Of a stretch of DNA of 64,000 nt, positions 7,084 through 64,000 are shown in pieces; position 1 is the first letter of the stretch; each line of letters begins with the position of its first letter. Source of the stretch: Patescibacteria group bacterium (lineage in GTDB: Bacteria > Patescibacteriota > Patescibacteriia > Veblenbacterales > UBA10138); contig JBAZQK010000004.1 in the NCBI GenBank assembly GCA_041645215.1, forward strand, positions 2,475 to 66,474. The letters are read 5' to 3'. The translations under genes and the position numbers were made by a program. Under the pieces are notes generated by a model, which made no database searches, was not told the origin of the DNA, and saw only the letters and a program-made list of their open reading frames with translations.

Positions 7084-7973
7084 TTCATCCCCGCCGAATC
7101 GGCGGGGCATTCTGGGTGTAACGGGGTAAATCGCCAGGAAATATTATGTGAAGGAATAGAGTAGCAAGACTTATTTTTAATGTCTCAACTTGCCCAACTC
7201 CGCCGCTAAATTTTATACCAAATTCTTACTATTCGCCTATTTCCTCCAAACCTGCCTGCCCACGGTCCCGCTGCGACGGAACCTCGCCTATAGCGGGGTG
7301 TGACCGGCAGGCAGGGGCGGGCGCGCGAATTAGATCATGGAAAAGATAGGATGGACAATCAAAAGTATGGTTCAACTTTTTAAAACCAATAGCCTCACCC
7401 AATAAAATAAATAGTATTAACCCCCCAGAGCAGGCTCTGGGCTCATATTCTGATTTTAATCCCGTAGCAAGCGGGCGCGGTATTATGATAAATGGAACTC
7501 CCTCCCGCTGTCCGCCGGCTGGCGGAATCCGGAGGTTATTCTGACGAAGCCCCGCTAAGCGGGGCGGAGGCGGATAAAAGAATCGAGTATCGAATAATTA
7601 AAATAGAACCCCCCAGCTAAAGCCGTGGTACCTGTCCCAACGCTCCTGCGGGGCGAACCGTAACACATATTGTGCGGCCGCACAATATGTGTTACGGCAT
7701 GCGGCCAGCGTCAGCCTTGGTCCCGAACTTTGCTCTGGTACAAAGGCGCCAGCGGACCAATTCACTCACCTTTGATGTACATCGGGGTGATCCTCTGGAC
7801 GCTGCGCTAGAATGAGTTGTGTTTTAACCTCTTGCTTTATTACCTAAAGGTTATATTTTTTTATACATCTCGCGCCATCAAATTTTGTGTTAAATTGTTA
7901 CTATTCGCCTATTCCCTCCAAAGGCGGGCAGACGCACGAATTAGATCATAGAAATGAACTACCTCACAGCCAG

Positions 7974-10200: not shown

Positions 10201-10998
10201 TTACGGCCAAATACGGTTATATGGATGGAATATTCTGAATCCGTTTTTTCTTTTTAACTCTGACAAAATTAGTGATTTCTTGATTTCAACACCACGTGCA
10301 TTTAATGGAGTTTCACCTCGTTTCCCCCGACTGTCAAACCACCAAACGCCTAAATTTCTTTTATAGATTGGTGTGCCAAATATCTTTGCATACGTTGGAA
10401 TTTTATATTCTAGCATTCCTCTCTCTTTATTAGGTATTTCTTGCCACTTCCTAAAGAAGCTTCGCGGTAAAATTTGAAGTATAAACAAACTGCATAGCAG
10501 TCTTCCTTTATATCCATACTTTTGCTCTAAATATTTCTTAAAAGCAACATAGTCATTCCGCCGTTTACTTTGAGGTTTAGTCCAGTTCCAACGTACCTCT
10601 ATATTTTTATCTAATATACGAGTTCCCGATATGAATAACTGATCATTTTTTAAACCAGGAAACTGCTTCTTTATTGAGCCAAGGACTAAGGCATCCCATT
10701 GAATTACAACAATACTGTCCCACTTAAGTCGTCTCCCTTGTTTTTTATACCAGTCAAGAATCATTAGGTCACCATGGATCCATTTCCACGCAGTTGATTT
10801 AGCATGTTTTGAACTAACATAAAAATCGTTCAAAAGAGGTACAAGCAATTTTCTGTACTTAGAAACTTCTTTTTTTGTGCCACCATAAAGTCCGTAGATG
10901 GGTAGTCTCGGATTGTATCTCTTAATAAGCTCCAGACGATTTTTACATATGTCTGATTTTTGATAAAACCAAAATAATACTGCGAGTTTCATATACAA
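10201..10998 (-). CDS. hypothetical protein (Lys/Arg/Trp-rich)
   Basis: 265-aa ORF with clean start and strong coding periodicity. No recognised motif. Confidence 0.55.
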   Translation of the reverse strand: MYMKLAVLFWFYQKSDICKNRLELIKRYNPRLPIYGLYGGTKKEVSKYRKLLVPLLNDFYVSSKHAKSTAWKWIHGDLMILDWYKKQGRRLKWDSIVVIQWDALVLGSIKKQFPGLKNDQLFISGTRILDKNIEVRWNWTKPQSKRRNDYVAFKKYLEQKYGYKGRLLCSLFILQILPRSFFRKWQEIPNKERGMLEYKIPTYAKIFGTPIYKRNLGVWWFDSRGKRGETPLNARGVEIKKSLILSELKRKNGFRIFHPYNRIWP

Positions 10999-11448
10999 AT
11001 TATATCACAGTCCGTGTTTACTTACGTAAAGTAAAAATATCAGATTCAATCAGGTGATTTAACTGGCCCCGGGGGTCACTTCGACAAGCTCAGGACACAT
11101 TAAACCAAAACCATTCGCCAGGCTCATTGTTTTTAAAATTCGACAGGCCCATGGCACAAAGCCATGGGCCTGTCGAATGGCTCCCCAGCCATCACGCTGT
11201 TATAAGTTTGCTATCGAATATAGATTACTCAAATACTGGATGGCCTTAAAATTATAGCTCCGGGTCGTGGTGCCTGCCTGACGGCAGGCAGGGACATTAA
11301 AACTGGAGTGATAGCTAAGGCTGCAGCCTTAGCCTAAGTACCCCACACCCCAGCACCAGCATAGCTTCCTATTGACTCATTATTTCTTTTATTGTAAGGT
11401 CTTTATGAAGACCACAAAAGTACCCAACAAACAAAAAAAGAGGTAAAA

Positions 11449-12303
11449 ATGAAAACCCTTAAAATTCTACTTGTCGGTTTTATTTTGTTTATCGCTATCT
11501 CCTGTCAGAGCGAAAAGGACAAAACCAATCCTCCTAACTCAGAGCAGTCAAACATAACTACTAAATATGGGGAACCAGAAGAATACTTTCCCATGGTCAT
11601 CGGCAAAAAATGGAAATACAATATTAAATTGGCCGAGAACAAAGAAATGAGCCCATTGCAATATGAAGTAGTTAGCTGGCCAATAGGAAAAAATGCTATT
11701 TCCTACTTAACACGCGGCATATTATACAGCCGAGACAAAAATGACGACCTCTGGTTAGTTCTTCAAATTGATAGCTCGGCGTCAAAACAAGGACCGTTGC
11801 AATTCCCAATCGGTGTGAGATTAAAAGTGTTACGCGATGATTTACGTATCTACGGCTGGCCGGAATATAATGAAGGTATTTACTGGGCCCGCCCAGCATC
11901 TGGCCGGTTTCAAGTTACCGAAGTGGTTTTGTATGACCCTATGGGCCCGGGTGCGCCGCGGATAGGCAGTTGGGGTGGATGGGGTGCAGAGCCCGGCTAT
12001 TCATTAGGAATTAAATTCTTTGGTGGTCGTCCGAATACTAGTATTAGTTTGGGAAAGAATAGTCCCGATCGTCTAGTATTTATCGGACCAGAGGATTTTG
12101 CCGGTTCAACTGCCCTGCATTTTAGGCGTCTGGTAGGCGAGGATAGTGAAAACGATTACGGAAAATCAAAAAACATCAAGGCTGATTACTTAAACAAATC
12201 GTTCACTGAGGATATGTGGTACCTCAGGCACGTGGGGTTAGTACGCTTGGTCCAAATAGTCGATGGAACAAGGACAATGGTTTGGACACTTGAAGGGCAT
12301 TGA
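11449..12303 (+). CDS. hypothetical lipoprotein
   Basis: Signal peptide with lipobox LFIAISC, then a hydrophilic domain. Confidence 0.65.
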   Translation: MKTLKILLVGFILFIAISCQSEKDKTNPPNSEQSNITTKYGEPEEYFPMVIGKKWKYNIKLAENKEMSPLQYEVVSWPIGKNAISYLTRGILYSRDKNDDLWLVLQIDSSASKQGPLQFPIGVRLKVLRDDLRIYGWPEYNEGIYWARPASGRFQVTEVVLYDPMGPGAPRIGSWGGWGAEPGYSLGIKFFGGRPNTSISLGKNSPDRLVFIGPEDFAGSTALHFRRLVGEDSENDYGKSKNIKADYLNKSFTEDMWYLRHVGLVRLVQIVDGTRTMVWTLEGH

Positions 12304-12513
12304 ACCCAAACATCAGCATGCATAGTTGCTGTCGATTTAGCTCGGCAGCAATTTTTTTAATGAGCGATGATTCAAATTTACTCCCAGACATCACTATAGC
12401 CTGGAAACAAAGAACTCACGTGCGTAACGATAAAAATGGTGGACAAAAGTCCTTGGCTCCGCATCGTGGAGGATATTAGAATCAGGATTGTGGTGAAATA
12501 TATGGCTAAAGTC

Positions 12514-12594
12514 TTAAAATCCACAAATGTTCCCAACATTGGCCGTTATGGGTACCAGTAACAGACCGCCCAATATGTTAAGTGATTTTTTCAT
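12514..12594 (-). pseudogene. remnant duplicate of the N-terminus of the 13468..14520 gene
   Basis: Encodes MKKSLNILGGLLLVPITA...CGF* versus MKKSFNLLGGLLLVPATA... of the downstream gene. Includes an exact 25-nt match gtcttaaaatccacaaatgttccca (12511-12535 vs 14413-14437). Confidence 0.5.
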
Positions 12595-12679
12595 AAATTA
12601 AACTATTAAATATTCAAATTAATTACATAACCTTTCATATTTTTTATAATTAAGAATTAATAAATTAATCATTATAATT

Positions 12680-13411
12680 TTACAGCCGTGATACCACAAA
12701 AGCCACCAAAAAACCAAAAACCGTTAAGGCGCTAATGGTAAACCCGCCCTCTTCATAAGCTTCCGGCATCATGTTAGCCGCCAGCATAGCCAGGATAGCG
12801 CCGGCCGCTAATGATTCCAAAATACCGATAGTGTTTGGACTTAAATCGTGTAAAAATAAATAACTAAATATCGTTATCAAAGTGATGAACAAGCTGGCGG
12901 CAAGCCAAGTGACAAAGATTTTGCCTGGCTTAAAGCCGGCTTTTTTCAAGCCACTGGCTGAAGCTACACCTTCGGGAAAGTTAGAAATGGCAATAGCCGC
13001 CAGCATCATCAAGCCAATATTTGGCTGGGCAAATAAGGTTATACCGAGGGCTATTGATTCAGGAATACCGTCTAACATTGAACCTAAGGTTATCATAAAT
13101 CCACTAGGTTCGCGTGGCGTAATTTTGAATTGATGGCGTTTATGCTTGCGACCACCCAGGTAGTGCACCAAATAATCGCTGCCGATATATATTAAGCCGC
13201 CAGCCAGAAACCCGATTATAACCGCGTCAAAACCGCCGCTTAAGAAAGCTTCGTCCATCAAACCAAAGGTTAGCGCGCAAATCAGCGCCCCGGCGCCAAA
13301 AGCCATAAAAGCCGCGATAGTCCTCTGCTCCCAGCGGCTATAAACACCACAGGCGGCTCCTAAAAGAAGACTAAAGCCATTCACCAGCGCAAAGGCAATT
13401 ATTTGAGTCAT
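12680..13411 (-). CDS. ZIP-family divalent metal transporter (ZupT-like)
   Basis: Multi-TM protein. HDLSPNT and NFPEGVA motifs (ZIP HNxPEG-like). His-rich loop GGRKHKRHQ. Confidence 0.8.
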   Translation of the reverse strand: MTQIIAFALVNGFSLLLGAACGVYSRWEQRTIAAFMAFGAGALICALTFGLMDEAFLSGGFDAVIIGFLAGGLIYIGSDYLVHYLGGRKHKRHQFKITPREPSGFMITLGSMLDGIPESIALGITLFAQPNIGLMMLAAIAISNFPEGVASASGLKKAGFKPGKIFVTWLAASLFITLITIFSYLFLHDLSPNTIGILESLAAGAILAMLAANMMPEAYEEGGFTISALTVFGFLVAFVVSRL

Positions 13412-13467
13412 AGCAAATTAATATTTAGGTAATTTATCATACAAAAGCGAAGCCATGAACCAGGCAA

Positions 13468-14520
13468 TTAATTCAAGGGCTTATTATTTTCTAATTGTTT
13501 CCGTAAAGTTTCGCCTTTGGTAGCAACGGCGTCAACTTCGGCTTTAATCTGATTAAGCACAGTCTGGGGCACGCCAAAATCATTAGGAATTTTAACGTCA
13601 CCCAGTTTGGGCGTCAGGTCAGGAATATTTATTTGGGGCGCACCGGGTGGAAGTTTAATAATTGGAATAATACCAGTGGGCAAACCTATTTCATTCAATG
13701 TTATATCCAAAACAATGTCTGGTCCGCCCGTGCCAGTGGGATAAGGAAAAGCGAGCGGCAATGGCGGCAAGTCAATCCGGGCGGCCAAGGTCATTCTAAT
13801 AACCCGGCCATCATTGGCAAATGATTTAATTTTAATAAAACTTGGCAAATACGGTTCGATGACCTGGCGATTGATATAATCCTTCATACCGGCCTCAATG
13901 CGCGCCTTAATATCGCTCTCGTTGGGCAACTGCGCTAAAGCGGCGGCAGGAATATCCGCCGGTATCAACGGTTTAAACATCTTCTCAAACTGAATATAGG
14001 CTAGTTCCGCCTCCTTGGCCAAATCCACATTAATATCTACCTCCACATTTTTAATGCTCATTTTGCCGGATTTATAAGTGCCGGCCGGAATGTTAAGCTG
14101 CCCTAAATTAACCATATTTTTCCCTGGGTACAAAGTTTTAACGCCGCTGGCCGGTAGAACCACCATCTCCTGATTTTGGTCGTTTACAAAAATTAGATCA
14201 CCCATCTCCACCCTAATTTCAGGCACGCTGACCGAAGGCCTGAGGTTGGGCGGATCGGTTAGAAAGATATTTATTTTGCCAACTAAAAATTGCACATAAG
14301 GCGAGATTAGAATACCAATCACAATGGCACCAGCCCAGAATTTTGGCAACTTTATAATAAAATGTAATATCGCCACTACCACCACGGCCACGCCAGCGGC
14401 CAGGGCCAAAGTCTTAAAATCCACAAATGTTCCCAGTTTGGCTTCGGCCGCTAGCGCCGCCCCATAGGCCGTTGCGGGCACCAGCAACAAACCACCTAAG
14501 AGGTTGAATGATTTTTTCAT
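13468..14520 (-). CDS. hypothetical exported membrane-anchored protein
   Basis: N-terminal signal plus TM, Pro-rich C-terminal half. Its N-terminus is duplicated as a remnant at 12514..12594. Confidence 0.6.
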   Translation of the reverse strand: MKKSFNLLGGLLLVPATAYGAALAAEAKLGTFVDFKTLALAAGVAVVVVAILHFIIKLPKFWAGAIVIGILISPYVQFLVGKINIFLTDPPNLRPSVSVPEIRVEMGDLIFVNDQNQEMVVLPASGVKTLYPGKNMVNLGQLNIPAGTYKSGKMSIKNVEVDINVDLAKEAELAYIQFEKMFKPLIPADIPAAALAQLPNESDIKARIEAGMKDYINRQVIEPYLPSFIKIKSFANDGRVIRMTLAARIDLPPLPLAFPYPTGTGGPDIVLDITLNEIGLPTGIIPIIKLPPGAPQINIPDLTPKLGDVKIPNDFGVPQTVLNQIKAEVDAVATKGETLRKQLENNKPLN

Positions 14521-15381: not shown

Positions 15382-15434
15382 GTTGCTGTCACAAAACACC
15401 CAGCTGACTAACCAGCTGGGTGTTTTATTATTTA

Positions 15435-15535
15435 CCCCGTTAGAAACAGAATGCCCCGCGGCTTGCCGCGGGGATGAATGCCGGTCGGTTTTAGCGAACA
15501 CGGTGTTTAATGCCCCGTGTGAGTTTCTAACGGGG
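15435..15535. mobile_element. MITE-like element A, CCCCGTTAGAA-TIR family (101 bp)
   Basis: ccccgttagaaac...gtttctaacgggg, 13-bp perfect TIRs. Internal hairpin gccccgcggcttgccgcgggg. Homologous inverted copy at 50898..51001. Confidence 0.7.
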
Positions 15536-15536
15536 T

Positions 15537-16061
15537 TTACAAAATAATTGGAAAAACCTTAAACAATAAGAACAACCAAAGTATAATTTTAACCACCAAC
15601 TCCAGTGGCACTCTAACATAAGAAATTGTCGGCCGAGCCAAATAACTTTCCAGCGCCAACCATACGGCCATAATTACATCCCACCAGATAAAAAACAGGA
15701 AAAAGTTAAACTGATAGCCGGTAAGACCATAAAGAACTATTAATATGGCAATATTGCTGAATTTATCACTCCAGTGGTCAAGATAACCTCCGAAGTATGT
15801 AACTTTGTTTTTTAAACGCGCCATCGCCCCATCCAGCAAATCCAAAAAATAAACCAAGCCGAAGACCAAAACCTGAATTAAGCTTGGTTTAAATATCGCC
15901 CAGGGCAACCAAACCAGTAATATCACGCTGCGAAATATAGTTACCTGATTCGGTGTCAACCACTCTGGCAAAATTTTTACCAAAGGTATGAATTTTTTAT
16001 CCTTGGTCAGCCTTAGCTGGTCGTGAAACTTGGAAAGATTTTGTCCAATTTTGCTTAACAT
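15537..16061 (-). CDS. CDP-alcohol phosphatidyltransferase family protein
   Basis: D-x2-DG-x2-AR-x8-G-x3-D-x3-D motif (DLLDGAMARLKNKVTYFGGYLDHWSD) in a multi-TM protein. Confidence 0.8.
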   Translation of the reverse strand: MLSKIGQNLSKFHDQLRLTKDKKFIPLVKILPEWLTPNQVTIFRSVILLVWLPWAIFKPSLIQVLVFGLVYFLDLLDGAMARLKNKVTYFGGYLDHWSDKFSNIAILIVLYGLTGYQFNFFLFFIWWDVIMAVWLALESYLARPTISYVRVPLELVVKIILWLFLLFKVFPIIL

Positions 16062-23440: not shown

Positions 23441-23645
23441 ACATGCAAATCCATGAAAAACATAAACGACCTATTAACTGAATTAGTTAAGGATTCAACC
23501 TTACAGAGCAGTGAACTAGAGAAGTAATATCTAAATTTAAAAGTGTTGATTTTAGAGCGTTTGAGGTAAAAAAAGGACAGGTGCCAATGTAATCCACCCG
23601 AAGGGTGGGATGAGTGGGGCAGGCCATTGAGCTACACATAGAAAC

Positions 23646-26623: not shown

Positions 26624-26780
26624 TACGAAATTCGGCGGCGGCGGAAAAGCGAGGACGGGCAAAAATTCCTTCCCCCCAACCCCCTTCCTTTTTGCCCGCC
26701 CGAGCTTAAAAGTTTTTCAAAATTCAGCGTTCGGATTTTCGCTAAAAAAAGTTCGGATTTCGTTCAGCGTTCGGAGCCAA
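26624..26780. repeat. IR-A copy 2 (inverted), ends with core GGAGCCAA
   Basis: Reverse complement of 23646..23800 with no mismatches. Confidence 0.9.
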
Positions 26781-26998: not shown

Positions 26999-28507
26999 AT
27001 GAAATATTTTTTATACATTAGAAAATCAACAGACGAGGACGACAGACAAGTTTTGTCGTTGGAAGCGCAGGAAACGGAATTGAAAGAATTTGCCTTGCGG
27101 GAAAATCTTTTGATCGCCGCGACTTTTCGAGAATCGCAAACTGCCAAAGAGCCGGGCAGACCGATTTTCAACGATATGCTCAAACGAATGGAAAGCGGCG
27201 AAGCCGAAGGGATTTTAGCGTGGCACCCCGATAGATTGGCAAGAAATAGCATAGACGGCGGACGAGTTATTTTTCTGATTGATACCGGAAAAATCAAGGC
27301 GCTAAAATCCCCGACATTTTGGTTTGAGCCGACCCCGCAAGGCAAATTTATGTTGAATATCGCTTTTGGGCAATCCAAATATTTTGTGGATAATCTTTCA
27401 GAGAATACCAAAAGAGGGTTGCGTCAAAAATTGCGCCGAGGCGAATTGCCCGGCTATGCTCCGCTCGGCTATTTGAACGATTTGCTAAAGCACACAATGT
27501 ATAAAGACCCAGAGAGATTTCGCCTCGTCAAGAAAATTTTTGAACTTTACGCAACTGGCAATTATTCTCTGAAAGATGTGCGGAAGTTAATAACTTCCGC
27601 TGGCTTGTTGAGCCGAAAGAAAAATATGCTTTCCGTTTCAAATATCCAAAGCATACTTTCAAATTCTTTTTATTACGGCGTTTTCAAATATAACGGCGAA
27701 ATGTATGACGGAAAGCATGAGCCAATGATTCCAAAGAAACTTTTTGAAGCGTGCCAAAAAGTAATGGCGGATCGTTCGCGCCCGAAAAAACCAAGCCAAA
27801 AAGAATATCCATTTAGAAATATGCTCGTTTGCGGTGAGTGCGGGTGCGCCATCACTTCCGAAACGCAAAAAGGACATAACTATTATCGTTGCACCAAAAA
27901 GCGGGATAAAAAATGTTCGCAAAAATATATTCGCGAGGAAGTTTTGGCAAGCCAGATTAAAGACGAGATTCAAAAAGTTTCTTTGTCTTCCGCTTGGGCG
28001 GAGTGGATGTTAAGCGAGATGAATAAAGAAGAAGCGGAAGCCGCCCAAAGCGGAGCCGTTTTCGCTCAAAATCTTAAAGACAAAATAAAAGAACTTGAAG
28101 GAAAGCTCGACCTACTTTTGGACGCACATTTGGACGGCACAATTTCTCGCGAGGAATACACCGCTAAAAAGGAAAAAATCATCAACGAAAAAAGCGAGTT
28201 TTCCGAAAAATCAAAGGATTTTGAGCGAAACGGCAATCATTGGCTCGAACCGGCCAGACAATTCATTTTAGCGGCTCAACAAGCCAAAATTGTCGCTTTG
28301 CAAGAAAATCCCGTCGCGGGACGGGATTTTCTCAAAAGGATTGGCTCGAACCGCGTTTTGCTTTCGCAAAAGGTGGCGATTGAACCCAAAAAATCTTGGC
28401 AAATACTATACAACCTGCCTGCCGAGGCGCGAAGCGCCGAGGCAATAAACTCACAACATACAATTTGGCTCCGGGGGTGGGACTCGAACCCACGACCAAG
28501 TGCTTAA
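26999..28507 (+). CDS. large serine recombinase (resolvase/invertase catalytic domain + recombinase domain + zinc ribbon)
   Basis: N-terminal YIRKSTDEDDRQVLSLEAQ (catalytic Ser), recombinase domain, Cys-rich CGECGCAITSE...YYRC, coiled-coil tail. The last ~50 codons are encoded by IR-B copy 2 and the tRNA-Asn 3' end. Confidence 0.9.
   Translation: MKYFLYIRKSTDEDDRQVLSLEAQETELKEFALRENLLIAATFRESQTAKEPGRPIFNDMLKRMESGEAEGILAWHPDRLARNSIDGGRVIFLIDTGKIKALKSPTFWFEPTPQGKFMLNIAFGQSKYFVDNLSENTKRGLRQKLRRGELPGYAPLGYLNDLLKHTMYKDPERFRLVKKIFELYATGNYSLKDVRKLITSAGLLSRKKNMLSVSNIQSILSNSFYYGVFKYNGEMYDGKHEPMIPKKLFEACQKVMADRSRPKKPSQKEYPFRNMLVCGECGCAITSETQKGHNYYRCTKKRDKKCSQKYIREEVLASQIKDEIQKVSLSSAWAEWMLSEMNKEEAEAAQSGAVFAQNLKDKIKELEGKLDLLLDAHLDGTISREEYTAKKEKIINEKSEFSEKSKDFERNGNHWLEPARQFILAAQQAKIVALQENPVAGRDFLKRIGSNRVLLSQKVAIEPKKSWQILYNLPAEARSAEAINSQHTIWLRGWDSNPRPSA
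28347..28472. repeat. IR-B copy 2 (inverted), ends with core TTGGCTCCG fused to the tRNA-Asn 3' end
   Basis: Identical to the reverse complement of 26772..26898. The core equals the last nucleotides of tRNA-Asn (GGAGCCAA). Confidence 0.9.
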
Positions 28508-28540
28508 CAGGCACCTGCTCTACCACTGAGCTACCCCGGA
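28466..28540 (-). tRNA. tRNA-Asn (anticodon GTT), CCA encoded
   Basis: Cloverleaf folded by hand. Acceptor TCCGGGG/CCCCGGA, D-arm GCTC-AGTGGTA-GAGC, anticodon loop CTGTTAA, T-arm GTGGG-TTCGAGT-CCCAC, discriminator G plus CCA. Confidence 0.9.
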
Positions 28541-50668: not shown

Positions 50669-50897
50669 AGATTAATAAGATTTAATTTTTATTTATCACA
50701 TTTTAATAGTACTCCTTCTGAGAAAAACAAAAAACTGCCCGATTGGCAGTTTGGTTGTATCTTATGGCGGGTGTGTCCCGATGAACGTCGGGAGACCCCC
50801 CATGCCCCGTAGCGTCCTCCAGAGGAGGACTGCTACTGGGTTTCTTCATTACCCCCGAAGAACGAACTGATATTCTTCTACGGGGCAAGTCAGTGAA

Positions 50898-51001
50898 CCC
50901 CGTTAGAAGCTCACACAGGGCATTAAACCCCGTGTTCGCTGTTGAGAATTGGGCATTCATCCCTGCGGCAGAGACCGCAGGGCATCCTGCTTCTAACGGG
51001 G
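50898..51001. mobile_element. MITE-like element B, CCCCGTTAGAA-TIR family (104 bp, inverted relative to A)
   Basis: About 85% identical to the reverse complement of 15435..15535. Paired compensatory substitutions in the internal hairpin (ccccgcgg/ccgcgggg vs ccctgcgg/ccgcaggg). Confidence 0.7.
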
Positions 51002-51016
51002 TGAAGTACATTCCAC

Positions 51017-51181: not shown

Positions 51182-51490
51182 TGGTGGCTATTTACAACAC
51201 CGGTTGGACTTACTTTAGCAAAAAATCCTGACCCTGACCAGCGATTTACCCCTTCATGCACCCCTTCATTCGCTCGGTCGCGGCTTGAAGGGGCAGATTT
51301 CGCAATATCACGCTTAAACACTCGCTTCTTTCCCCTCACTCCTCGCAAAATCAAAGTCCGACTTCACTACGGAAAGGGTTGCTCCGCTCCTCGCTTCGCT
51401 CGTCGCTCCGCAAGTCGCGGGGTCGCGTCTGGTGGCTCGGCCTTCTCCTTCCGTCCCGCTATTTCTTTTTGCTCGTCGTGGGGGGGGTGA
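51182..51490. repeat. 309-bp terminal inverted repeat, left copy
   Basis: 100% identical to the reverse complement of 59241..59549. Outer end TGGTGGCTATTTAC, inner end poly-G(8). GC-rich. The embedded ORFs (51055..51354, 59377..59697) are judged spurious. Confidence 0.9.
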
Positions 51491-57892: not shown

Positions 57893-59182
57893 TTGGACGA
57901 ACATCATTTGGACGAAATAGAATCGCTCGGCGAAACTACTTTTAGAGAACAGCGTCGTGCGTTCGGAATAAGACCCAAAGACCGACGCCATCATGTTTAT
58001 ATCATCGGCAAGACCGGCACGGGCAAATCCACTCTTATCAAAAACATGGTCATTCAAGACCTGCGTCTGAATCACGGCGTCGCTCTTATTGATCCTCACG
58101 GCGACTTGGTGGAGGACATATTAAACTTCATACCGAAAACGCGGACAAACGAAGTTGTCTATTTCAATCCTGCGGACACCGAGCACCCTGTCGCTATCAA
58201 CATACTTGAAGCGAAGGGCGACGAGGAAAAACAACTCGTCGCCTCATCGCTTATTTCCGTTTTCCGTCATTTGTGGAAAGAGTTTTGGGGTCCCCGTCTT
58301 GAACACATTTTATACAACTGCGTCTTGGCTTTGATGGACACGCCCGGGCAAACTTTGCTCGGCGTGTATCGCATGCTCGTGGATGACGAGTTCAGAAAAC
58401 TCATCGTCGGCAACATCAAAGACCCGATTGTAAAAATGTTTTGGGTCGAGGATTATGAAAGTTACGACACCCGTTTTCGCAAGGAAATAATCTCGCCCGT
58501 TCAAAACAAAGTGGGACAACTTCTCACATCTCCGCAAATGCGAAACATCGTCGGCCAAGCCAAAAGCTCGGTGGACTTCGGTTTTGTGATGGACCAAAAG
58601 CGGATTCTTTTGGCCAATCTTTCCAAGGGGAAAGTTGGCGAAGATAAATCAAACCTGCTCGGTTCGGCCATCGTTACTAAAATGTATCTCTCCGCTTTGG
58701 AGCGGCAGAACTTGCCGGAGGAGCACCGCAAGGACTTCTATCTCTACATAGACGAATTTCAGAATTTTTCCACCGACATTTTCCCGTCTATCCTCTCCGA
58801 AGCTCGTAAATACCGCTTGAACCTCAACCTCGCCCATCAATACCTCTACCAACTGCCCGAAGGCATCAAGCACGCCGTTTTCGGAAACGTCGGGACTGTC
58901 ATTTCCTTCCGCGTCGGGAGCTACGACGCCAAAGAACTGGCGGAAGAAATGAAGCCCGTATTTACGAGCGAGGACTTGGAGAACTTGGACAATCATCATA
59001 TCGCCTTGCGGCTCTTGATAGACGGAAAAATGTCTCACGCTTTCTCCGCCGTTACCTTTCCGCCCCTGAAACCCACCGGACGGGAAGCGGAACGGGACAC
59101 GGTTTTACGAATATCGCGGGAACGCTACGCTACTCCGCGCGATATTGTAGAAGAAAAATTAAAAAATTGGTTTGAAAAATAA
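57893..59182 (+). CDS. VirD4/TraG/TraD-like coupling-protein ATPase (AAA_10-like), second paralog
   Basis: Walker A GKTGTGKSTL, DPHGD, Walker B YLYIDEFQNF, ARKYRL. Confidence 0.65.
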   Translation: MDEHHLDEIESLGETTFREQRRAFGIRPKDRRHHVYIIGKTGTGKSTLIKNMVIQDLRLNHGVALIDPHGDLVEDILNFIPKTRTNEVVYFNPADTEHPVAINILEAKGDEEKQLVASSLISVFRHLWKEFWGPRLEHILYNCVLALMDTPGQTLLGVYRMLVDDEFRKLIVGNIKDPIVKMFWVEDYESYDTRFRKEIISPVQNKVGQLLTSPQMRNIVGQAKSSVDFGFVMDQKRILLANLSKGKVGEDKSNLLGSAIVTKMYLSALERQNLPEEHRKDFYLYIDEFQNFSTDIFPSILSEARKYRLNLNLAHQYLYQLPEGIKHAVFGNVGTVISFRVGSYDAKELAEEMKPVFTSEDLENLDNHHIALRLLIDGKMSHAFSAVTFPPLKPTGREAERDTVLRISRERYATPRDIVEEKLKNWFEK

Positions 59183-59240
59183 AACGCTCTCGGCCACGCG
59201 GCCTTGAGCGTTTGTTATTTTATTTTTCAATCACGATTTA

Positions 59241-59549
59241 TCACCCCCCCCACGACGAGCAAAAAGAAATAGCGGGACGGAAGGAGAAGGCCGAGCCACC
59301 AGACGCGACCCCGCGACTTGCGGAGCGACGAGCGAAGCGAGGAGCGGAGCAACCCTTTCCGTAGTGAAGTCGGACTTTGATTTTGCGAGGAGTGAGGGGA
59401 AAGAAGCGAGTGTTTAAGCGTGATATTGCGAAATCTGCCCCTTCAAGCCGCGACCGAGCGAATGAAGGGGTGCATGAAGGGGTAAATCGCTGGTCAGGGT
59501 CAGGATTTTTTGCTAAAGTAAGTCCAACCGGTGTTGTAAATAGCCACCA
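59241..59549. repeat. 309-bp terminal inverted repeat, right copy
   Basis: Exact reverse complement of 51182..51490. Confidence 0.9.
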
Positions 59550-59699
59550 AGATACAACTCAATTCATTTTCAGAAATTTTTTGATGGGCTTCCTCAATGG
59601 AAGCCCATTGTTTTTCCGCAACGCCGCGCGCTTCGCGCGCGTGAAGTGTCAGGTTCAATCCGAAGATTTTTTGAGCGAACGATTTTTTGAGGGGTAAGG

Positions 59700-61448
59700 T
59701 TAAATATTATCGTGAATTTTTATAAGCAGTTGTACTAAATCCTTAATCTTGAATTTTTTGAGCTCGCTCTTGTCAGCAAGATACTCAAAAACATAGTGCG
59801 CTTTTGTATTCGCCTCCTTCCTGAATAAACCCACTTCTCTATTAAACTTATCTATATAGTTTTCAATGTTAGGTTTGCCGAAATTTTTTCTCTCGCCGTA
59901 AAGATTCTTTATAAGAACACCGAATTTGTGTCTCACCTTATTTTTTGTGTCGTACCACAAATCAACACGCCTAGGGAATTTCTTTTCCAGAATATTAAAC
60001 ACCAAATTTTCTATCATCTTCCTGCAAAGAAAAAACGCCGCGTTGGGGTGATTATGTTCATAACAAACATTAATTTCCTCTTGAAGTTGGTCATAAAAAT
60101 TCTCCGGGTACTTACCGCCAATCTCAACCAAGACCTCTGGCGGCGTTGGAACTTTTGTGGGCGTTGGAACTGGCAATGGGCCCTTGCGTTCTTTTGCAGT
60201 TTTCTTTTTCCTTGCTTTGATTTTATGCGATTCAAGCTCACTTCGCAGGTCGGTGAATATCCCGAATATGGAAGCCTGAACGAACGCAATCAAGTCTTGA
60301 AACTCCTCCGTAAATACAACGCCCTCCCTCGTAGTTGTATCAATAATTGCGGAATTTTTTGACCTGCTTATGTGAACCATTCCGATCAGTTGATCGCGTC
60401 TGGGATATATGCTGTTGTTATGTGCAGAGATATCCAGGTTAAGCCAGTCATTTCCAATATCCCCATAAGGTTTTACCCGAAAATTATCCCGATAGAGTTT
60501 GATTCCATTGTAGTGCTCCAGCAACTTTACAATCTCCTTGAGCTCGGCGGTTACCATCTTTTTCCCGACTGCCTGCTCAAAAGATTTCGGCGACTTGTAG
60601 AAGAAGTGCAGTTCAAAAACAGCATCTCCGCATTTAAGTTTTCTGTCCGTTGGCCGGTTGCCGTCTCTCTTTTTTCCTTTTGCCGAAGAAAATTCGTAAC
60701 GGATCAGGCTTCCGCCTACCAATTTGGTTTTCAAAGTATAAACAGCTTTATCAAGAAATTCTTTCTTGATTTTGGGGACTACGGCTAGCGGCGGGTCAAA
60801 TTTTGCGGCTACCTTAAAATCTCTTGCTTGTTTATTCAACGGGTTGAGCAGATATACATCTGACAATAGCTCTGTCTGTGTTTCTTGAATGTTCCAGTCG
60901 TGGTTTAGATTCTTGATTTCAATCCTTATGCCGTGTTCAGATTTTTTCTTCTTGAATTCGGATGTTGGATTATCAATATCGTTTACAAGAACTTTTTCGT
61001 CCTGATATTTATCCCAATCAAAGACAATTTTATATCCCGTATCCTTTCCTTTGGGCAAAGAAAACAAAGTCGCTGTTCTGCCCAAGCTTTCTACAGACAA
61101 TCTTCCAATACCTTTCTCGCCGATAAAAGTTCTCTCCCCGTTTTTTAGTTTCTTTGATTTAAATGGGGTGGCTATCCGCATCCATTTACTTTTAAGGTCC
61201 AGATAATCCATCCCGTTGCCATTATCTGATATAGAAATCATTGCGTCCTTCGTATTAACGGAGCTAAAATCAACCTCTACTTTAGCCGCACCAGCATCAT
61301 AGGAATTTTTAAGGAGTTCTAGTATAGCGACGTCCTTATTGGAAATGGACTCACGCCCGAATTTTCTTATCAGGTTGCCGCTAACGTCAAAGCGGAGCGG
61401 TTCAACGCTTTTCTCCTGAAAATTTTTGTGATCTTTCGGATTGTGCAT
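59700..61448 (-). CDS. GHKL-superfamily ATPase (MORC/MutL-like, HATPase_c_3-type)
   Basis: N-box ILELLKNSYDAGA, G1 box ISDNGNGMD, G2 GEKGIGRLS. 582 aa. Last gene of a three-gene minus-strand operon. Confidence 0.75.
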   Translation of the reverse strand: MHNPKDHKNFQEKSVEPLRFDVSGNLIRKFGRESISNKDVAILELLKNSYDAGAAKVEVDFSSVNTKDAMISISDNGNGMDYLDLKSKWMRIATPFKSKKLKNGERTFIGEKGIGRLSVESLGRTATLFSLPKGKDTGYKIVFDWDKYQDEKVLVNDIDNPTSEFKKKKSEHGIRIEIKNLNHDWNIQETQTELLSDVYLLNPLNKQARDFKVAAKFDPPLAVVPKIKKEFLDKAVYTLKTKLVGGSLIRYEFSSAKGKKRDGNRPTDRKLKCGDAVFELHFFYKSPKSFEQAVGKKMVTAELKEIVKLLEHYNGIKLYRDNFRVKPYGDIGNDWLNLDISAHNNSIYPRRDQLIGMVHISRSKNSAIIDTTTREGVVFTEEFQDLIAFVQASIFGIFTDLRSELESHKIKARKKKTAKERKGPLPVPTPTKVPTPPEVLVEIGGKYPENFYDQLQEEINVCYEHNHPNAAFFLCRKMIENLVFNILEKKFPRRVDLWYDTKNKVRHKFGVLIKNLYGERKNFGKPNIENYIDKFNREVGLFRKEANTKAHYVFEYLADKSELKKFKIKDLVQLLIKIHDNI

Positions 61449-61457
61449 GTTTTTGTC

Positions 61458-62714
61458 TTAAATACTACGCAGAATAGTGGAAGCGATTATTTCAGCAAAT
61501 ATCGGAGGTACAGCATTGCCGATTTGTTTGAACTGTGGTCCGCGCTCGCCCTCAAACTTATAATCATCAGGGAATGTTTGCAGGCGCGCCGCCTCTCTTA
61601 CGGTCAGAGAACGGTTTTGTTTTATGTCAGGATGAATATAAAAATGTCCATCTTTCGCGATGTGCGCAACGATGGTGTGTAAACCTTTAGCAACAGCATC
61701 AACCACCTTGAACCGGTCCAGAAAACCATCCTCGTTGCTATGTGTTTTCAGGCGTTCTGGCAGGTGATTATACTTTATGTTTTCACCTTTCCGTTTTGCA
61801 AGCACCGCACGTCTGTAAATTTCCAAGTCTTGGCTGTTATTCGGCCTGGCCACGTGATCCATAAGGATTCCAAACTTCGGATTGAGGATACCGAGTTTCT
61901 CCAAAAGCATGTTCCGTTTTGAAAATTTCCAGACCCGTTTGCCTGTTCCTGCTTGGACTTCCGGCAGACCGGCAAAAAAATCTTTAACGACATACTCGCG
62001 TTCAGTTGCCGGAAAATCCGGATAACCATTGATTTTTGATGTTTTATTCCAACCAACAAGAATGACCCGTTTTCTGTTCTGTGGAACGCCGAAATCCACG
62101 GCATTAAGAATTTTATAATCTGTATCATAACCAGCGTGCTTCATAAGACGGCGCATATCCCGAAGATATTTACCTTTTCCTGCTGTTTCAAGCCCAGGGA
62201 CATTTTCAAAAACAAACACCTTGGGTTTTAGAGCTTTCAGGAATTCTACATAATATCGGTAAAGAAAATTACGCTCATCCCGGCGCATATTTTTGCCGTC
62301 GCGGGCACGCCCTATGTACGAATAAGCCTGACAAGGCGGGCCGCCGACGATAATGTCTATCCTTTTCCCGTTCAAACGTTTCTTGATTTGCTGAATAAGT
62401 TCCGTTATGTTGTTTTTTTCTATTTTCGCGCATATCACAGAATCCTTTTCTTTTTGAAGTCCGTATTTTTCTATCAGCGAATCACGGGTGATTCTGCCGA
62501 ACACATAGTTTCTGTAATCGTCCAGCTTGTCTTTTTTAAGAAGTGCGTGATATACCATTCGCGTTATCAGAGTGCTGCAGGCTTTTTTGTCCATTTCTAC
62601 ATGGGCAACCATCTCACATCCGGCCTGCATAAAACCCTCCGATAGTCCGCCAGCTCCGGAGAAAAGGTCAATCGCGGTAAAAGTTTTATTTTTTCGTTGT
62701 TTTGGCTTTTTCAT
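61458..62714 (-). CDS. DNA (cytosine-5)-methyltransferase
   Basis: Motif I AIDLFSGAGGLSEGF, motif IV GGPPCQAYS, motif VI ENV. The target recognition domain and motifs IX-X are plausible but not examined in detail. Confidence 0.9.
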   Translation of the reverse strand: MKKPKQRKNKTFTAIDLFSGAGGLSEGFMQAGCEMVAHVEMDKKACSTLITRMVYHALLKKDKLDDYRNYVFGRITRDSLIEKYGLQKEKDSVICAKIEKNNITELIQQIKKRLNGKRIDIIVGGPPCQAYSYIGRARDGKNMRRDERNFLYRYYVEFLKALKPKVFVFENVPGLETAGKGKYLRDMRRLMKHAGYDTDYKILNAVDFGVPQNRKRVILVGWNKTSKINGYPDFPATEREYVVKDFFAGLPEVQAGTGKRVWKFSKRNMLLEKLGILNPKFGILMDHVARPNNSQDLEIYRRAVLAKRKGENIKYNHLPERLKTHSNEDGFLDRFKVVDAVAKGLHTIVAHIAKDGHFYIHPDIKQNRSLTVREAARLQTFPDDYKFEGERGPQFKQIGNAVPPIFAEIIASTILRSI

Positions 62715-62717
62715 ATA

Positions 62718-64000
62718 TCAATGAGAAAATATTCTCTCAAAATCATTTGTCCAATACTGCCTATATTCTTCCTTAATTTCTTTGCCCGGCTGTCGTTCGT
62801 TAAAGTAAAACATCTCGGCTTTTTCAAGTTTTTTATTCCTCATTTTATTAAAATCATTAAGAAAATCAAGGAAACCATCAATTTTTTCAGCAGAATTTTC
62901 AGTGTGTTCAATTCCGTGGGGGTCAATAAATTTCAAGTAATATTTATTGTCTTTCTTGAACCAAAAAATAAAATCTGGGAAAAACATTCTGTATTCACTT
63001 TTTTCTGAATCAAAATAAGGAATACCGATTTTATCAATAGTTTCGTCAATTTTTGAAAAATACCACCACTTACATTGTTTTAATTTATTATCTGCTTTAT
63101 TTAAATATTCTTTCAGTTTTTCTAAAAATTCAATTTCGCTCCCAACTTTAATAATGTGCTGGAAACGATCCGAATCCTTTTTAAATAAAATCGGGGAATA
63201 GTAATGTTCCTCTAAAATTTCAAAATCTAAGTAATTTTTCAATACTTCAAGATTCTTGCTATCGGCGATATCTTTAATCAGTTTTTTATATTCATCTCTT
63301 CCGATTTTTCCGTCATCAAACATCTTGTCAATTTCTTTCTCTGTTTTTCTCGGTTTGATAATTTTCAAAATATCTTTTTCCAGTTTCGCCACCTCGGTTT
63401 TATCTATGTTTGTTTTTACCTCTTTATAGTGAGAAATTTCGCCATCCAAAATTTTTATTGCGTTCAGTTTTTTTATGTTTTCATTAAAATAATTGTCCGC
63501 GATAAACAATATATTTTCTATTGATTTTTTCCTTCGCCTTTCGCCAATCTTAAAATTATTTTTGGCGTTTACCATTTTATATGTTCTTAATTTAGCCCAA
63601 TTTTTCAAAAGAAGTACTTTCGCGCCATTTCTTTGAACAATCTGTGAAAGTTCGTCAAATTCATTTTTGCCAATCCAAAAAGGCTTATCGTTTAATCCGC
63701 CATCCTCAAAGACCGGAATAAAAATCGGCAAATCACTTTCTTTGATTTCCTCGTTTTTCTTTATTCCCTCAATTTTAATCCATTCGGCGTTAGCTTGTTT
63801 CTCAAGCCCTTCTAAAATATTTTTCACAACTTCTTTATTCGTGGCGAAAACAAACAAGCTCTCCAAAAGATTATTGCTTTTTTCTATCTTTTCAATTTCG
63901 GAGTTTGAAAAAAGCGAATTGTCCAAATGCTCAAACCTTTTTCTTTGATTTGATGTCGGCTCAATTCTTATTCCTCGTCCGATTGACTGCAAAACAAATT
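62718..64000 (-). CDS. C-terminal part of an SF2-helicase-containing protein with putative nuclease-like C-domain (gene continues beyond window end)
   Basis: Begins in-window with helicase motif VI QSIGRGIRI. About 400 aa follow, ending FPDFIFWFKKDNKYYLKFIDPHG (possible PD-(D/E)xK-like). The upstream helicase motifs lie outside the window. Confidence 0.55.
   Translation of the reverse strand, partial: FVLQSIGRGIRIEPTSNQRKRFEHLDNSLFSNSEIEKIEKSNNLLESLFVFATNKEVVKNILEGLEKQANAEWIKIEGIKKNEEIKESDLPIFIPVFEDGGLNDKPFWIGKNEFDELSQIVQRNGAKVLLLKNWAKLRTYKMVNAKNNFKIGERRRKKSIENILFIADNYFNENIKKLNAIKILDGEISHYKEVKTNIDKTEVAKLEKDILKIIKPRKTEKEIDKMFDDGKIGRDEYKKLIKDIADSKNLEVLKNYLDFEILEEHYYSPILFKKDSDRFQHIIKVGSEIEFLEKLKEYLNKADNKLKQCKWWYFSKIDETIDKIGIPYFDSEKSEYRMFFPDFIFWFKKDNKYYLKFIDPHGIEHTENSAEKIDGFLDFLNDFNKMRNKKLEKAEMFYFNERQPGKEIKEEYRQYWTNDFERIFSH

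Follow-up and report, generated by a model that had tools for sequence, protein, structure and literature searches.

A conserved C5-methyltransferase and paraMORC-like ATPase pair with a predicted HEPN-fold tail adjoins a Type III-like restriction module on a Patescibacteria island

At the right end of a 64,000-nucleotide (nt) stretch of a Patescibacteria group bacterium genome (GenBank assembly GCA_041645215.1, contig JBAZQK010000004.1, positions 2,475 to 66,474; hereafter the window), three closely packed minus-strand open reading frames (ORFs) encode the C-terminal part of a superfamily 2 (SF2) helicase, a C5-cytosine DNA methyltransferase (C5-MTase) and a GHKL ATPase (Table 1). We find that the C5-MTase and GHKL genes are a conserved, translationally coupled pair, with an intact ATPase and a conserved tail of HEPN fold as judged from its model, and that the helicase is part of a separate Type III-like restriction–modification (R-M) module; this division is well supported. 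With confidence somewhat above even, we read the locus as a mosaic of two defence modules, set head to tail on a recombinase-bearing Patescibacteria island, the second of which would work as proposed below. A preliminary description, made from the letters of the window and its ORFs, had taken the helicase, C5-MTase and GHKL protein for a single system. It rightly saw three tight minus-strand genes (the spacers are 3 nt between MTase and Res, 62715–62717, and 9 nt between GHKL and MTase, 61449–61457), all of restriction or defence type and lying in a mobile neighbourhood.

Two contigs matching the window at 100% identity over 4332 and 4444 nt (L001, Logan SRR8449827, matching window 59669–64000, and L002, ENA ERZ27249422, a MEGAHIT assembly matching 59557–64000) extend the locus beyond position 64000. 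There, a divergent serine recombinase gene is followed by a helix-turn-helix (HTH) controller gene, a Mod gene and the remainder of Res, giving the order HTH, Mod, Res, C5-MTase, GHKL. Searching a protein collection with the GHKL protein gave 575 matches; the approximately 120 listed were 36–100% identical and mostly full length. We fetched 80 genome loci encoding GHKL relatives and compared the five cassette proteins with all of their ORFs, the resulting counts being lineage-redundant. A same-strand C5-MTase gene immediately preceded the GHKL gene, at −29 to +15 nt, in 10 of the 11 evaluable loci sharing the window's C-terminal domain, and one lay directly upstream in 41 of 73 evaluable loci of the wider family. 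Clustering of flanking ORFs in the ortholog loci returned no third conserved gene beside the pair.

The helicase does not follow this pattern. By profile search, the window's Res family was absent from all 80 other GHKL loci, and a Type III Res of any detected kind lay within 10 kb in 3 of the 80 (4 of 81 with the window), in a survey that used a profile of this Res family and one canonical Type III Res and that SNF2 and other SF2 helicases would escape. HTH-Mod-Res occurs without the MTase-GHKL pair in another Patescibacteria genome (L083; Res 91% identical), and Mod-Res stands alone in Orenia (L084; Res 40% identical). Base composition also changes, from 31% G+C in Mod and 32% in Res to 44% in the MTase gene and 40% in the GHKL gene, with a step of about 10 points exactly at the Res/MTase junction. 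Taken together, the conservation of the pair, the stand-alone HTH-Mod-Res and Mod-Res loci and the G+C step lead us to regard the two modules as being of separate origin and joined head to tail. The same evidence, with the helicase's own Mod and HTH genes, opposes the single helicase, MTase and GHKL system of the preliminary description. Other neighbours of the pair are complete unrelated systems, for example HinP1I R-M and Pycsar. The two members of the pair also show incongruent identities between loci (L001/L013, GHKL 51% and MTase 30%; L001/L012, GHKL 40% and MTase 60%).

The GHKL protein matched HATPase_c_3 (E 1.6e-21) and carries an N box (ELLKNSYDA), a G1 box (DNGNGM) and a G2 box (GEKGIGR), as the preliminary description had noted for a GHKL ATPase of this length. 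Across 95 homologs (36–91% identical), E44, N48, D51, D75, G77, G79, G110, K112, G113 and R116 were invariant, and K317, R320, R324, D334, W335, D370, R374 and E375 of the middle region were invariant or nearly so. An AlphaFold model of the full protein, built from the alignment of these homologs, had a mean predicted local distance difference test (pLDDT) score of 87.4, and a Foldseek search with it returned MORC3 (5ix2, E 1.6e-11), TRAP1, MORC2, the N-terminal domain (NTD) of MutL and SMCHD1 over about 440 columns, which bears out the suggested likeness to MORC and MutL. A PDB sequence search with the family profile found only the GHKL domains of Hsp90, MutL and MORC3. The protein is thus a MORC/MutL-like GHKL and S5 ATPase. 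We label it paraMORC-like only, without placement in paraMORC1–5; true MORCs are told apart from paraMORCs by a MORC-specific sequence motif (Iyer et al. 2008, PMC2292703).

Pfam, NCBIfam, PADLOC, PDB sequence and fold searches revealed no DNase domain (PD-(D/E)xK, HNH, PLD or GIY-YIG) in the GHKL protein, and no PADLOC model of a known defence system extended beyond its ATPase domain. A classical Type II R-M system has a cognate DNA endonuclease beside its MTase; with no DNase domain and no third conserved gene, the pair was not assigned to that class. In recognizing the ATPase the preliminary description was correct yet incomplete, since it missed both the HEPN-like tail and the lack of a recognizable DNase in the pair.

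Modelled alone, the C-terminal domain gave a confident, all-helical structure (pLDDT 93.7). Its best PDB fold matches were 2q00 (probability 0.99, TM-scores 0.63/0.69) and 2hsb, then 1wol and 1ufb, with AbiV and HepS lower in the list; 2q00 and 2hsb are both listed as HEPN (Anantharaman et al. 2013, PMC3710099). The domain is conserved as strongly as the ATPase domain: five of its residues (E458, R476, K477, E480 and H551) do not vary among the 95 homologs, and N/D547 shows full conservation. The long third helix (526–551) ends with H551, at the place of the HEPN motif.

Relatives of the GHKL protein carry other domains in place of this tail. Four of them (P0067, P0069, P0071 and P0072), 56–62% identical over the first 68–76% of the GHKL protein's length, have a Pfam-significant Ymh-HEPN domain with an RDKKAH motif in the tail position (Hypoth_Ymh at 4.7e-19 in P0069). 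A Micrarchaeota relative (L018) has DUF4145 there (26.1 bits against a cut-off of 23.1), and relatives of about 700 aa have a histidine-kinase module. From the model and these exchanges we conclude that the tail has a HEPN fold and occupies the position of an exchangeable effector or output domain, its catalysis being putative. Support for the fold, which in HEPN proteins has four helices running up and down, is moderate because the fold-match E-values are weak.

Several published predictions concern proteins of similar design. Ymh-HEPN/paraMORC fusions have been described in R-M neighbourhoods (Anantharaman et al. 2013, PMC3710099), and they likewise join a GHKL and S5 ATPase to a C-terminal HEPN-superfamily domain beside DNA methyltransferases. 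The present tail differs in that it is DUF4145-like and not Ymh, as judged by Pfam and hhalign, and in that it has H551 without the canonical Arg, whereas the Ymh relatives keep R-D-K-K-A-H. Triplets of a C5-MTase, an HEF_HK/paraMORC histidine-kinase-like protein and Response_reg_2 (Bellieny-Rabelo et al. 2021, PMC8011034) share a homologous N-terminal HATPase_c_3 and S5 region (27–36% identity) and a C5-MTase directly upstream. Their GHKL proteins, however, are about 700 aa long, end in a histidine kinase and are followed by a response-regulator-like gene, whereas the window's protein ends in the HEPN fold and has no downstream partner.

VcSduA of Vibrio cholerae (paraMORC3, Shedu type I-D) is a proven anti-phage protein that requires both its ATPase and its nuclease (PMC12137116). 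By description it resembles the window's protein in having a GHKL ATPase, a clamp-like middle domain and a C-terminal effector, but that effector is a PD-(D/E)xK DNase (DUF4263) and VcSduA is encoded by a single gene without a methyltransferase. PrrC and RloC, which are linked to Type I/III R-M, resemble the window's protein in design, not descent, combining an NTPase sensor and a C-terminal HEPN nuclease within or beside R-M operons (PMC3710099); unlike the present protein, they have ABC-type ATPases, a canonical Rx4-6H motif and no dedicated methyltransferase. Our literature search found no paper on a family that pairs a paraMORC bearing a DUF4145-like HEPN tail with a C5-MTase; in public records its members go by no other name than 'ATP-binding protein' or 'hypothetical protein'. 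The window's family is a further variant of a computationally predicted kind, with a DUF4145-like HEPN tail, a non-canonical active site and a two-gene organization with a C5-MTase.

The partner MTase matched DNA_methylase (PF00145, E 4.5e-66) and TIGR00675 (198 bits against a cut-off of 100.65), and its translation contains FSGAGG, PPCQ, ENV, QNRKR and GNAVPP, which upholds the earlier assignment to the canonical Dcm-type C5 enzymes. Its best PDB match was M.HaeIII. The PADLOC model of the DISARM methylase DrmMII also matched end to end (2.2e-162). We rejected DISARM class 2, which combines DrmMII with DrmA (helicase), DrmB (DUF1998) and DrmC or DrmE, as only the MTase fits a Drm model and Res, Mod and the GHKL protein fit none; the match in the absence of other DISARM genes implies that the model also catches MTases outside DISARM. 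The very-short-patch repair endonuclease Vsr, free or fused to the MTase, occurs in 8 of 14 ortholog loci: the partner C5-MTases of L003 (8353–9993), L009 (144–1541), L010 (8309–9952) and L013 (7335–8747) have an N-terminal Vsr fusion, and L004, L005, L007 and L008 carry free Vsr genes. Neither the window nor L002 contains a Vsr gene.

Of Res, only the final 44% falls inside the window; the 5′ part of the gene, like Mod and the HTH controller, is found past position 64000. No Pfam family matched the fragment as it stands in the window. Completing the gene from the identical contigs, a step that the preliminary description had proposed, gave a 969-aa ResIII/DEAD protein (ResIII E 3.9e-16, full-length protein from L001) with conserved helicase motifs I, II (DEAH), III, V and VI. 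The full protein confirms that the part visible in the window begins at motif VI of an SF2 helicase, and with ResIII all three of the domain families proposed for the locus, including DNA_methylase and HATPase_c_3, were matched. The PD-(D/E)xK domain suspected at the C terminus is supported by residues that are invariant in 107 homologs (S-E831, P-D885 and D902-P-(K/H)904). Position 904 itself is His here and in 41 of the 107 homologs and Lys in the other 66, a natural K/H dimorphism at a catalytic position.

Mod (897 aa; L001 1494–4187) matched PF01555 (E 3.5e-34; N6/N4, beta-class) and the PADLOC MTase_III model PDLC03638 (2.9e-194), and its best PDB relatives were the Type III Mod proteins 6k0w and 4zcf. 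The 68-aa HTH_3 protein matched models of R-M controller proteins. Since Mod and HTH precede Res, we assign the helicase as Res of a Type III-like Mod/Res pair that has a dedicated controller. The arrangement has the marks of Type III systems, with a beta-class N6/N4 Mod beside a Res that combines an SF2 motor and a C-terminal PD-(D/E)xK nuclease, as in EcoP15I-like enzymes. Type III R-M is further characterized by hemimethylation by Mod and by ATP-dependent cleavage for which two unmethylated sites in inverse orientation are required. It differs from these in the make-up of Mod, which has a 450-aa N-terminal region and no large insertion within the MTase domain, in the HTH controller gene standing before the operon, and in Res falling outside PF19778 and the PADLOC REase_III models. 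Res matched neither RE_endonuc (PF19778) nor REase_III at E <= 0.001 and had no PDB relative in a sequence search, and it is therefore filed as Type III-like; precomputed annotation places it in PF27151. The canonical Type III Res proteins of L012 and L046 do match PF19778. The family is very large, with more than 5000 matches of about 970 aa, and the Type III-like system beside the pair is an ordinary representative of it. Of the contrary outcomes that the preliminary description had named, neither was found: the helicase is not a housekeeping enzyme, nor is the GHKL protein a MutL or histidine-kinase homolog in an operon of its own.

Several comparison loci place other genes beside these modules. 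In L083, the closest stand-alone HTH-Mod-Res operon, Res is followed (10971–13503) by two ORFs, one of 54 aa and one for a 799-aa ATPase of AAA_13, the family of PrrC/RloC-type ATPases, where the window has MTase-GHKL. The order in L011/L012 is MTase-GHKL-Mod-Res, then Pycsar; in the Patescibacteria locus L012 (8731–17478) a compact defence island runs from C5-MTase and paraMORC-HEPN through canonical Mod and Res (RE_endonuc) to a Pycsar effector (PycTM) and a cyclase. In L046 (3362–13453), from a Marinifilaceae metagenome-assembled genome, a C5-MTase, a paraMORC-histidine-kinase protein, a 440-aa protein with no Pfam match, a Vsr and a Fic_N fragment lie between canonical Type III mod and res genes. 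This resembles the arrangement of prrC, which sits between hsd genes.

In this reading, module 1 runs from the controller HTH through Mod to Res, an SF2 helicase with PD-(D/E)xK, on the Type III design. Module 2 is a self-contained unit of two genes, the C5-MTase and then the paraMORC with its GHKL, S5 and HEPN-fold parts, for which we infer the following working. The MTase would mark host DNA. Given that GHKL orthologs have unrelated MTase subtypes as partners, it would probably also give sequence specificity, the part played by Mod in Type III systems. A paraMORC dimer, through ATP binding and hydrolysis, would clamp on or scan DNA, and an unmethylated foreign target would switch on the HEPN-type tail, most likely a metal-independent RNase. 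Cleavage of RNA would halt translation and hence phage growth. A matching role has been proposed for Ymh-HEPN/paraMORC fusions, by analogy to the anticodon nucleases PrrC and RloC (Anantharaman et al. 2013, PMC3710099). More tentatively, the pair may provide a DNase-free, R-M-like immunity in which the clamp reads its partner's methylation mark and then engages either a non-canonical HEPN RNase (abortive infection) or a MORC-like compaction or silencing of unmarked DNA; its repeated placement with Type III genes could mean that it guards those systems, as PrrC guards EcoprrI.

A number of observations weigh against this proposal. The Foldseek E-values of the tail are weak (0.35 or higher), as expected of a small helical bundle. 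The only Pfam hit on the tail was DUF5677, at 21.1 bits below a cut-off of 27.1; hhalign gave no signal between the tail and the Ymh domain of the sister proteins, and a partial alignment with the DUF4145 domain of L018 (E 6e-4, 28 columns) covered the first helices only. A PDB sequence search with the C-terminal domain profile returned noise only. The canonical HEPN Arg is absent: position 546 is V, A, T or S in 95 of 95 homologs, so that the tail does not have the Rx4-6H motif, and the nearest basic residue, R/K543, stands 7 before the His (Rx7H). RNase activity is uncertain for want of this Arg; in this respect the tail resembles some HEPN families described as 'H conserved, R lacking' (PMC3710099). 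As to the separateness of the modules, Type III genes flank the pair in two further lineages, which makes some functional coupling possible, and the 3-nt spacer between Res and MTase, where our scan predicted no terminator, would allow both modules to be co-transcribed. That promoter and terminator scan of 59150–64000 stood at chance level (14 found against 10.3 expected, and 3 against 5.0) and is thus uninformative on transcription units.

The spacing and the Type III neighbours also speak for an extended form of the preliminary view, in which HTH, Mod, Res, C5-MTase and GHKL would form one composite system, a MORC-type R-M operon like those described by Iyer et al. (2008); the Rad25/Type III-like helicase-nuclease would cut, and the GHKL protein would loop or remodel DNA between recognition and cleavage sites. 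The genes share a strand, with spacers of 3 and 9 nt and no terminator-like site between them, and Type III mod and res touch the pair in two more unrelated lineages (L011/L012 and L046). MORC and paraMORC genes have, moreover, been reported in R-M neighbourhoods with SF2 helicases, including Type III-like helicase-nucleases, and DCM (Iyer et al. 2008, PMC2292703). We nevertheless consider a composite system unlikely: the C5-MTase is the sole gene conserved with GHKL, the window's Res family is missing from all 80 other GHKL loci and a Type III Res of any kind detected by our two queries is rare there, HTH-Mod-Res and Mod-Res stand alone in L083 and L084, the G+C step falls at the junction, and in other genomes the pair adjoins different complete systems, which is what one expects of a defence island.

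If the Type III-like module is set apart, the pair itself might still be an ordinary Type II-like system, its GHKL protein being a DNA endonuclease of the HgiDII/BbrUII kind that cuts unmethylated sites. The methylase of HgiDII is a C5 enzyme. The order of methylase then nuclease, in overlapping or abutting genes, is found in many Type II systems, and the N-terminal 170 residues match the BbrUII/HgiDII family NF050001 of NCBIfam (E 1.1e-19) as well as two PADLOC REase_II models. The match is confined to the GHKL domain, however: it covers only profile positions 2–175 of 659 and scores 70.5 bits against a cut-off of 550, and we rejected membership of NF050001. Pfam, NCBIfam, PADLOC and fold searches having returned no DNase domain of the four kinds, the C-terminal domain having a HEPN fold, and GHKL orthologs having MTases of differing subtype as partners although no recognition region in them stands out as hypervariable, we regard this explanation as distinctly doubtful. 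An immune role might be lacking altogether: the protein could be a MutL/MORC-like clamp whose C-terminal domain serves dimerisation, aiding mismatch repair after 5-methylcytosine deamination together with Vsr, or compacting or silencing DNA in a methylation-dependent manner as eukaryotic MORCs do. HEPN domains form dimers, and a GHKL ATPase depends on a domain for constitutive dimerisation; the nearest structures are MORC3, MORC2 and MutL, the canonical catalytic Arg is missing, and Vsr accompanies more than half of the ortholog loci. Yet Vsr is lacking from the window and L002, the conserved polar set (H551, N/D547, R476, K477 and E480) exceeds the needs of a dimer interface, close relatives swap the tail for Ymh-HEPN with an intact RDKKAH, and the loci lie in defence islands and on mobile DNA, all of which makes a purely non-immune clamp improbable. 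We therefore retain the two-module mosaic, with the pair as a predicted methylation-gated defence unit.

Table 1. Features at the right end of the window and at the borders of the adjoining element (window coordinates).
Feature	Position	Strand	Remark
GHKL protein ORF	59700-61448	-	582 aa
GHKL (Bergerat-fold) ATPase domain, aa 1-190	60879..61448	-	ATP-site residues invariant
S5/transducer-like middle region, aa 191-440	60129..60878	-	from model, Foldseek and alignment
All-helical HEPN-fold (DUF4145-like) domain, aa 448-582	59703..60107	-	candidate effector or dimerisation domain
C5-MTase ORF	61458-62714	-	418 aa
C5-cytosine DNA methyltransferase, 418 aa, all catalytic motifs	61458..62714	-	conserved partner of GHKL gene
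Res ORF (3′ part)	62718-63992 in ORF list; feature 62718..64000	-	open to window end (FVLQSIGRGIRI)
Res C-terminal part, ~aa 543-969 of 969	62718..64000	-	SF2 motif VI (QSIGRGIRI) to PD-(D/E)xK-type nuclease
Inverted copy of the serine recombinase's last 65 codons and stop	59500..59697	-	begins 3 nt past GHKL stop codon
309-nt perfect inverted repeat ('TIR')	left arm 51182-51490; right arm 59241-59549	.	100% complementary

The cassette lies between recombinase sequences. The large serine recombinase (Resolvase, Recombinase and Zn_ribbon_recom domains) is encoded at the opposite end of the 10.3-kb cassette from the GHKL gene, and about 10 kb away, following the GHKL gene, lies an inverted copy of its tail (Table 1). 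Positions 1–141 of L002 correspond to window 59557–59697, with the inverted copy at the other end of that contig (10449–10589), as would be expected if inverted repeats enclosed the segment. In L086 and L087, related recombinase genes end natively in this tail, and a metagenome scan with the tail pattern returned only two related short contigs. Inverted repeats thus bracket the cassette, which may be able to invert or may have arisen by rearrangement between related islands.

The preliminary description had placed the GHKL gene directly outside the right terminal inverted repeat (TIR) of a mobile element. The 309-nt repeat is real. A distance of 150 nt separates the end of its right arm from the GHKL stop codon, and the outer 50 nt of that arm overlap the recombinase-tail fragment. 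The two arms enclose 7.75 kb with an ArdC-N-like gene, a trypsin-like peptidase gene, a tRNA-Arg(TCT) and a gene for a TraG/TrwB-like coupling protein. Both arms start with the final 16 codons of the recombinase gene's tail, and the repeat may therefore represent the duplicated end of an island and not the terminus of a transposon.

Immediately beside the left arm, on its left, are tRNA-like remnants (with translations including GFEPSTF and WIRTRDL), of which ARAGORN and Rfam call none; Rfam on the whole window found three tRNAs only, and around the left arm only chance hairpin matches. Long perfect inverted repeats seem recurrent on the contig. Further pairs lie at 23643–23801/26625–26783 (159 nt, 99%) and at 26772–26898/28347–28473 (127 nt, 100%), the latter ending at a tRNA-Asn (28466–28540). 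A short palindromic repeat with the core CCCCGTTAGAA/TTCTAACGGGG occurs at several sites (7097–7131, 15423–15547 and 50893–51005; pairs I4–I6 and I12).

Prokaryotic MORC relatives are thought to be ancestral to the eukaryotic MORC silencers, and the only experimentally tested paraMORC that our literature search found is VcSduA, which has a DNase effector. The present family numbers at least about 120 clusters (90% identity) in candidate phyla radiation (CPR) bacteria, DPANN archaea, Ignavibacteriae and Zixibacteria. For annotation, the locus shows that a helicase, an MTase and a GHKL gene lying adjacent in a defence island are not to be taken for one system unless their conservation has been checked. 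As a compact unit of two genes and about 3 kb, the pair opens two questions to direct study: by what means a GHKL clamp would sense 5-methylcytosine status, and whether methylation gating can be combined with an RNase-type effector in place of DNA cutting.

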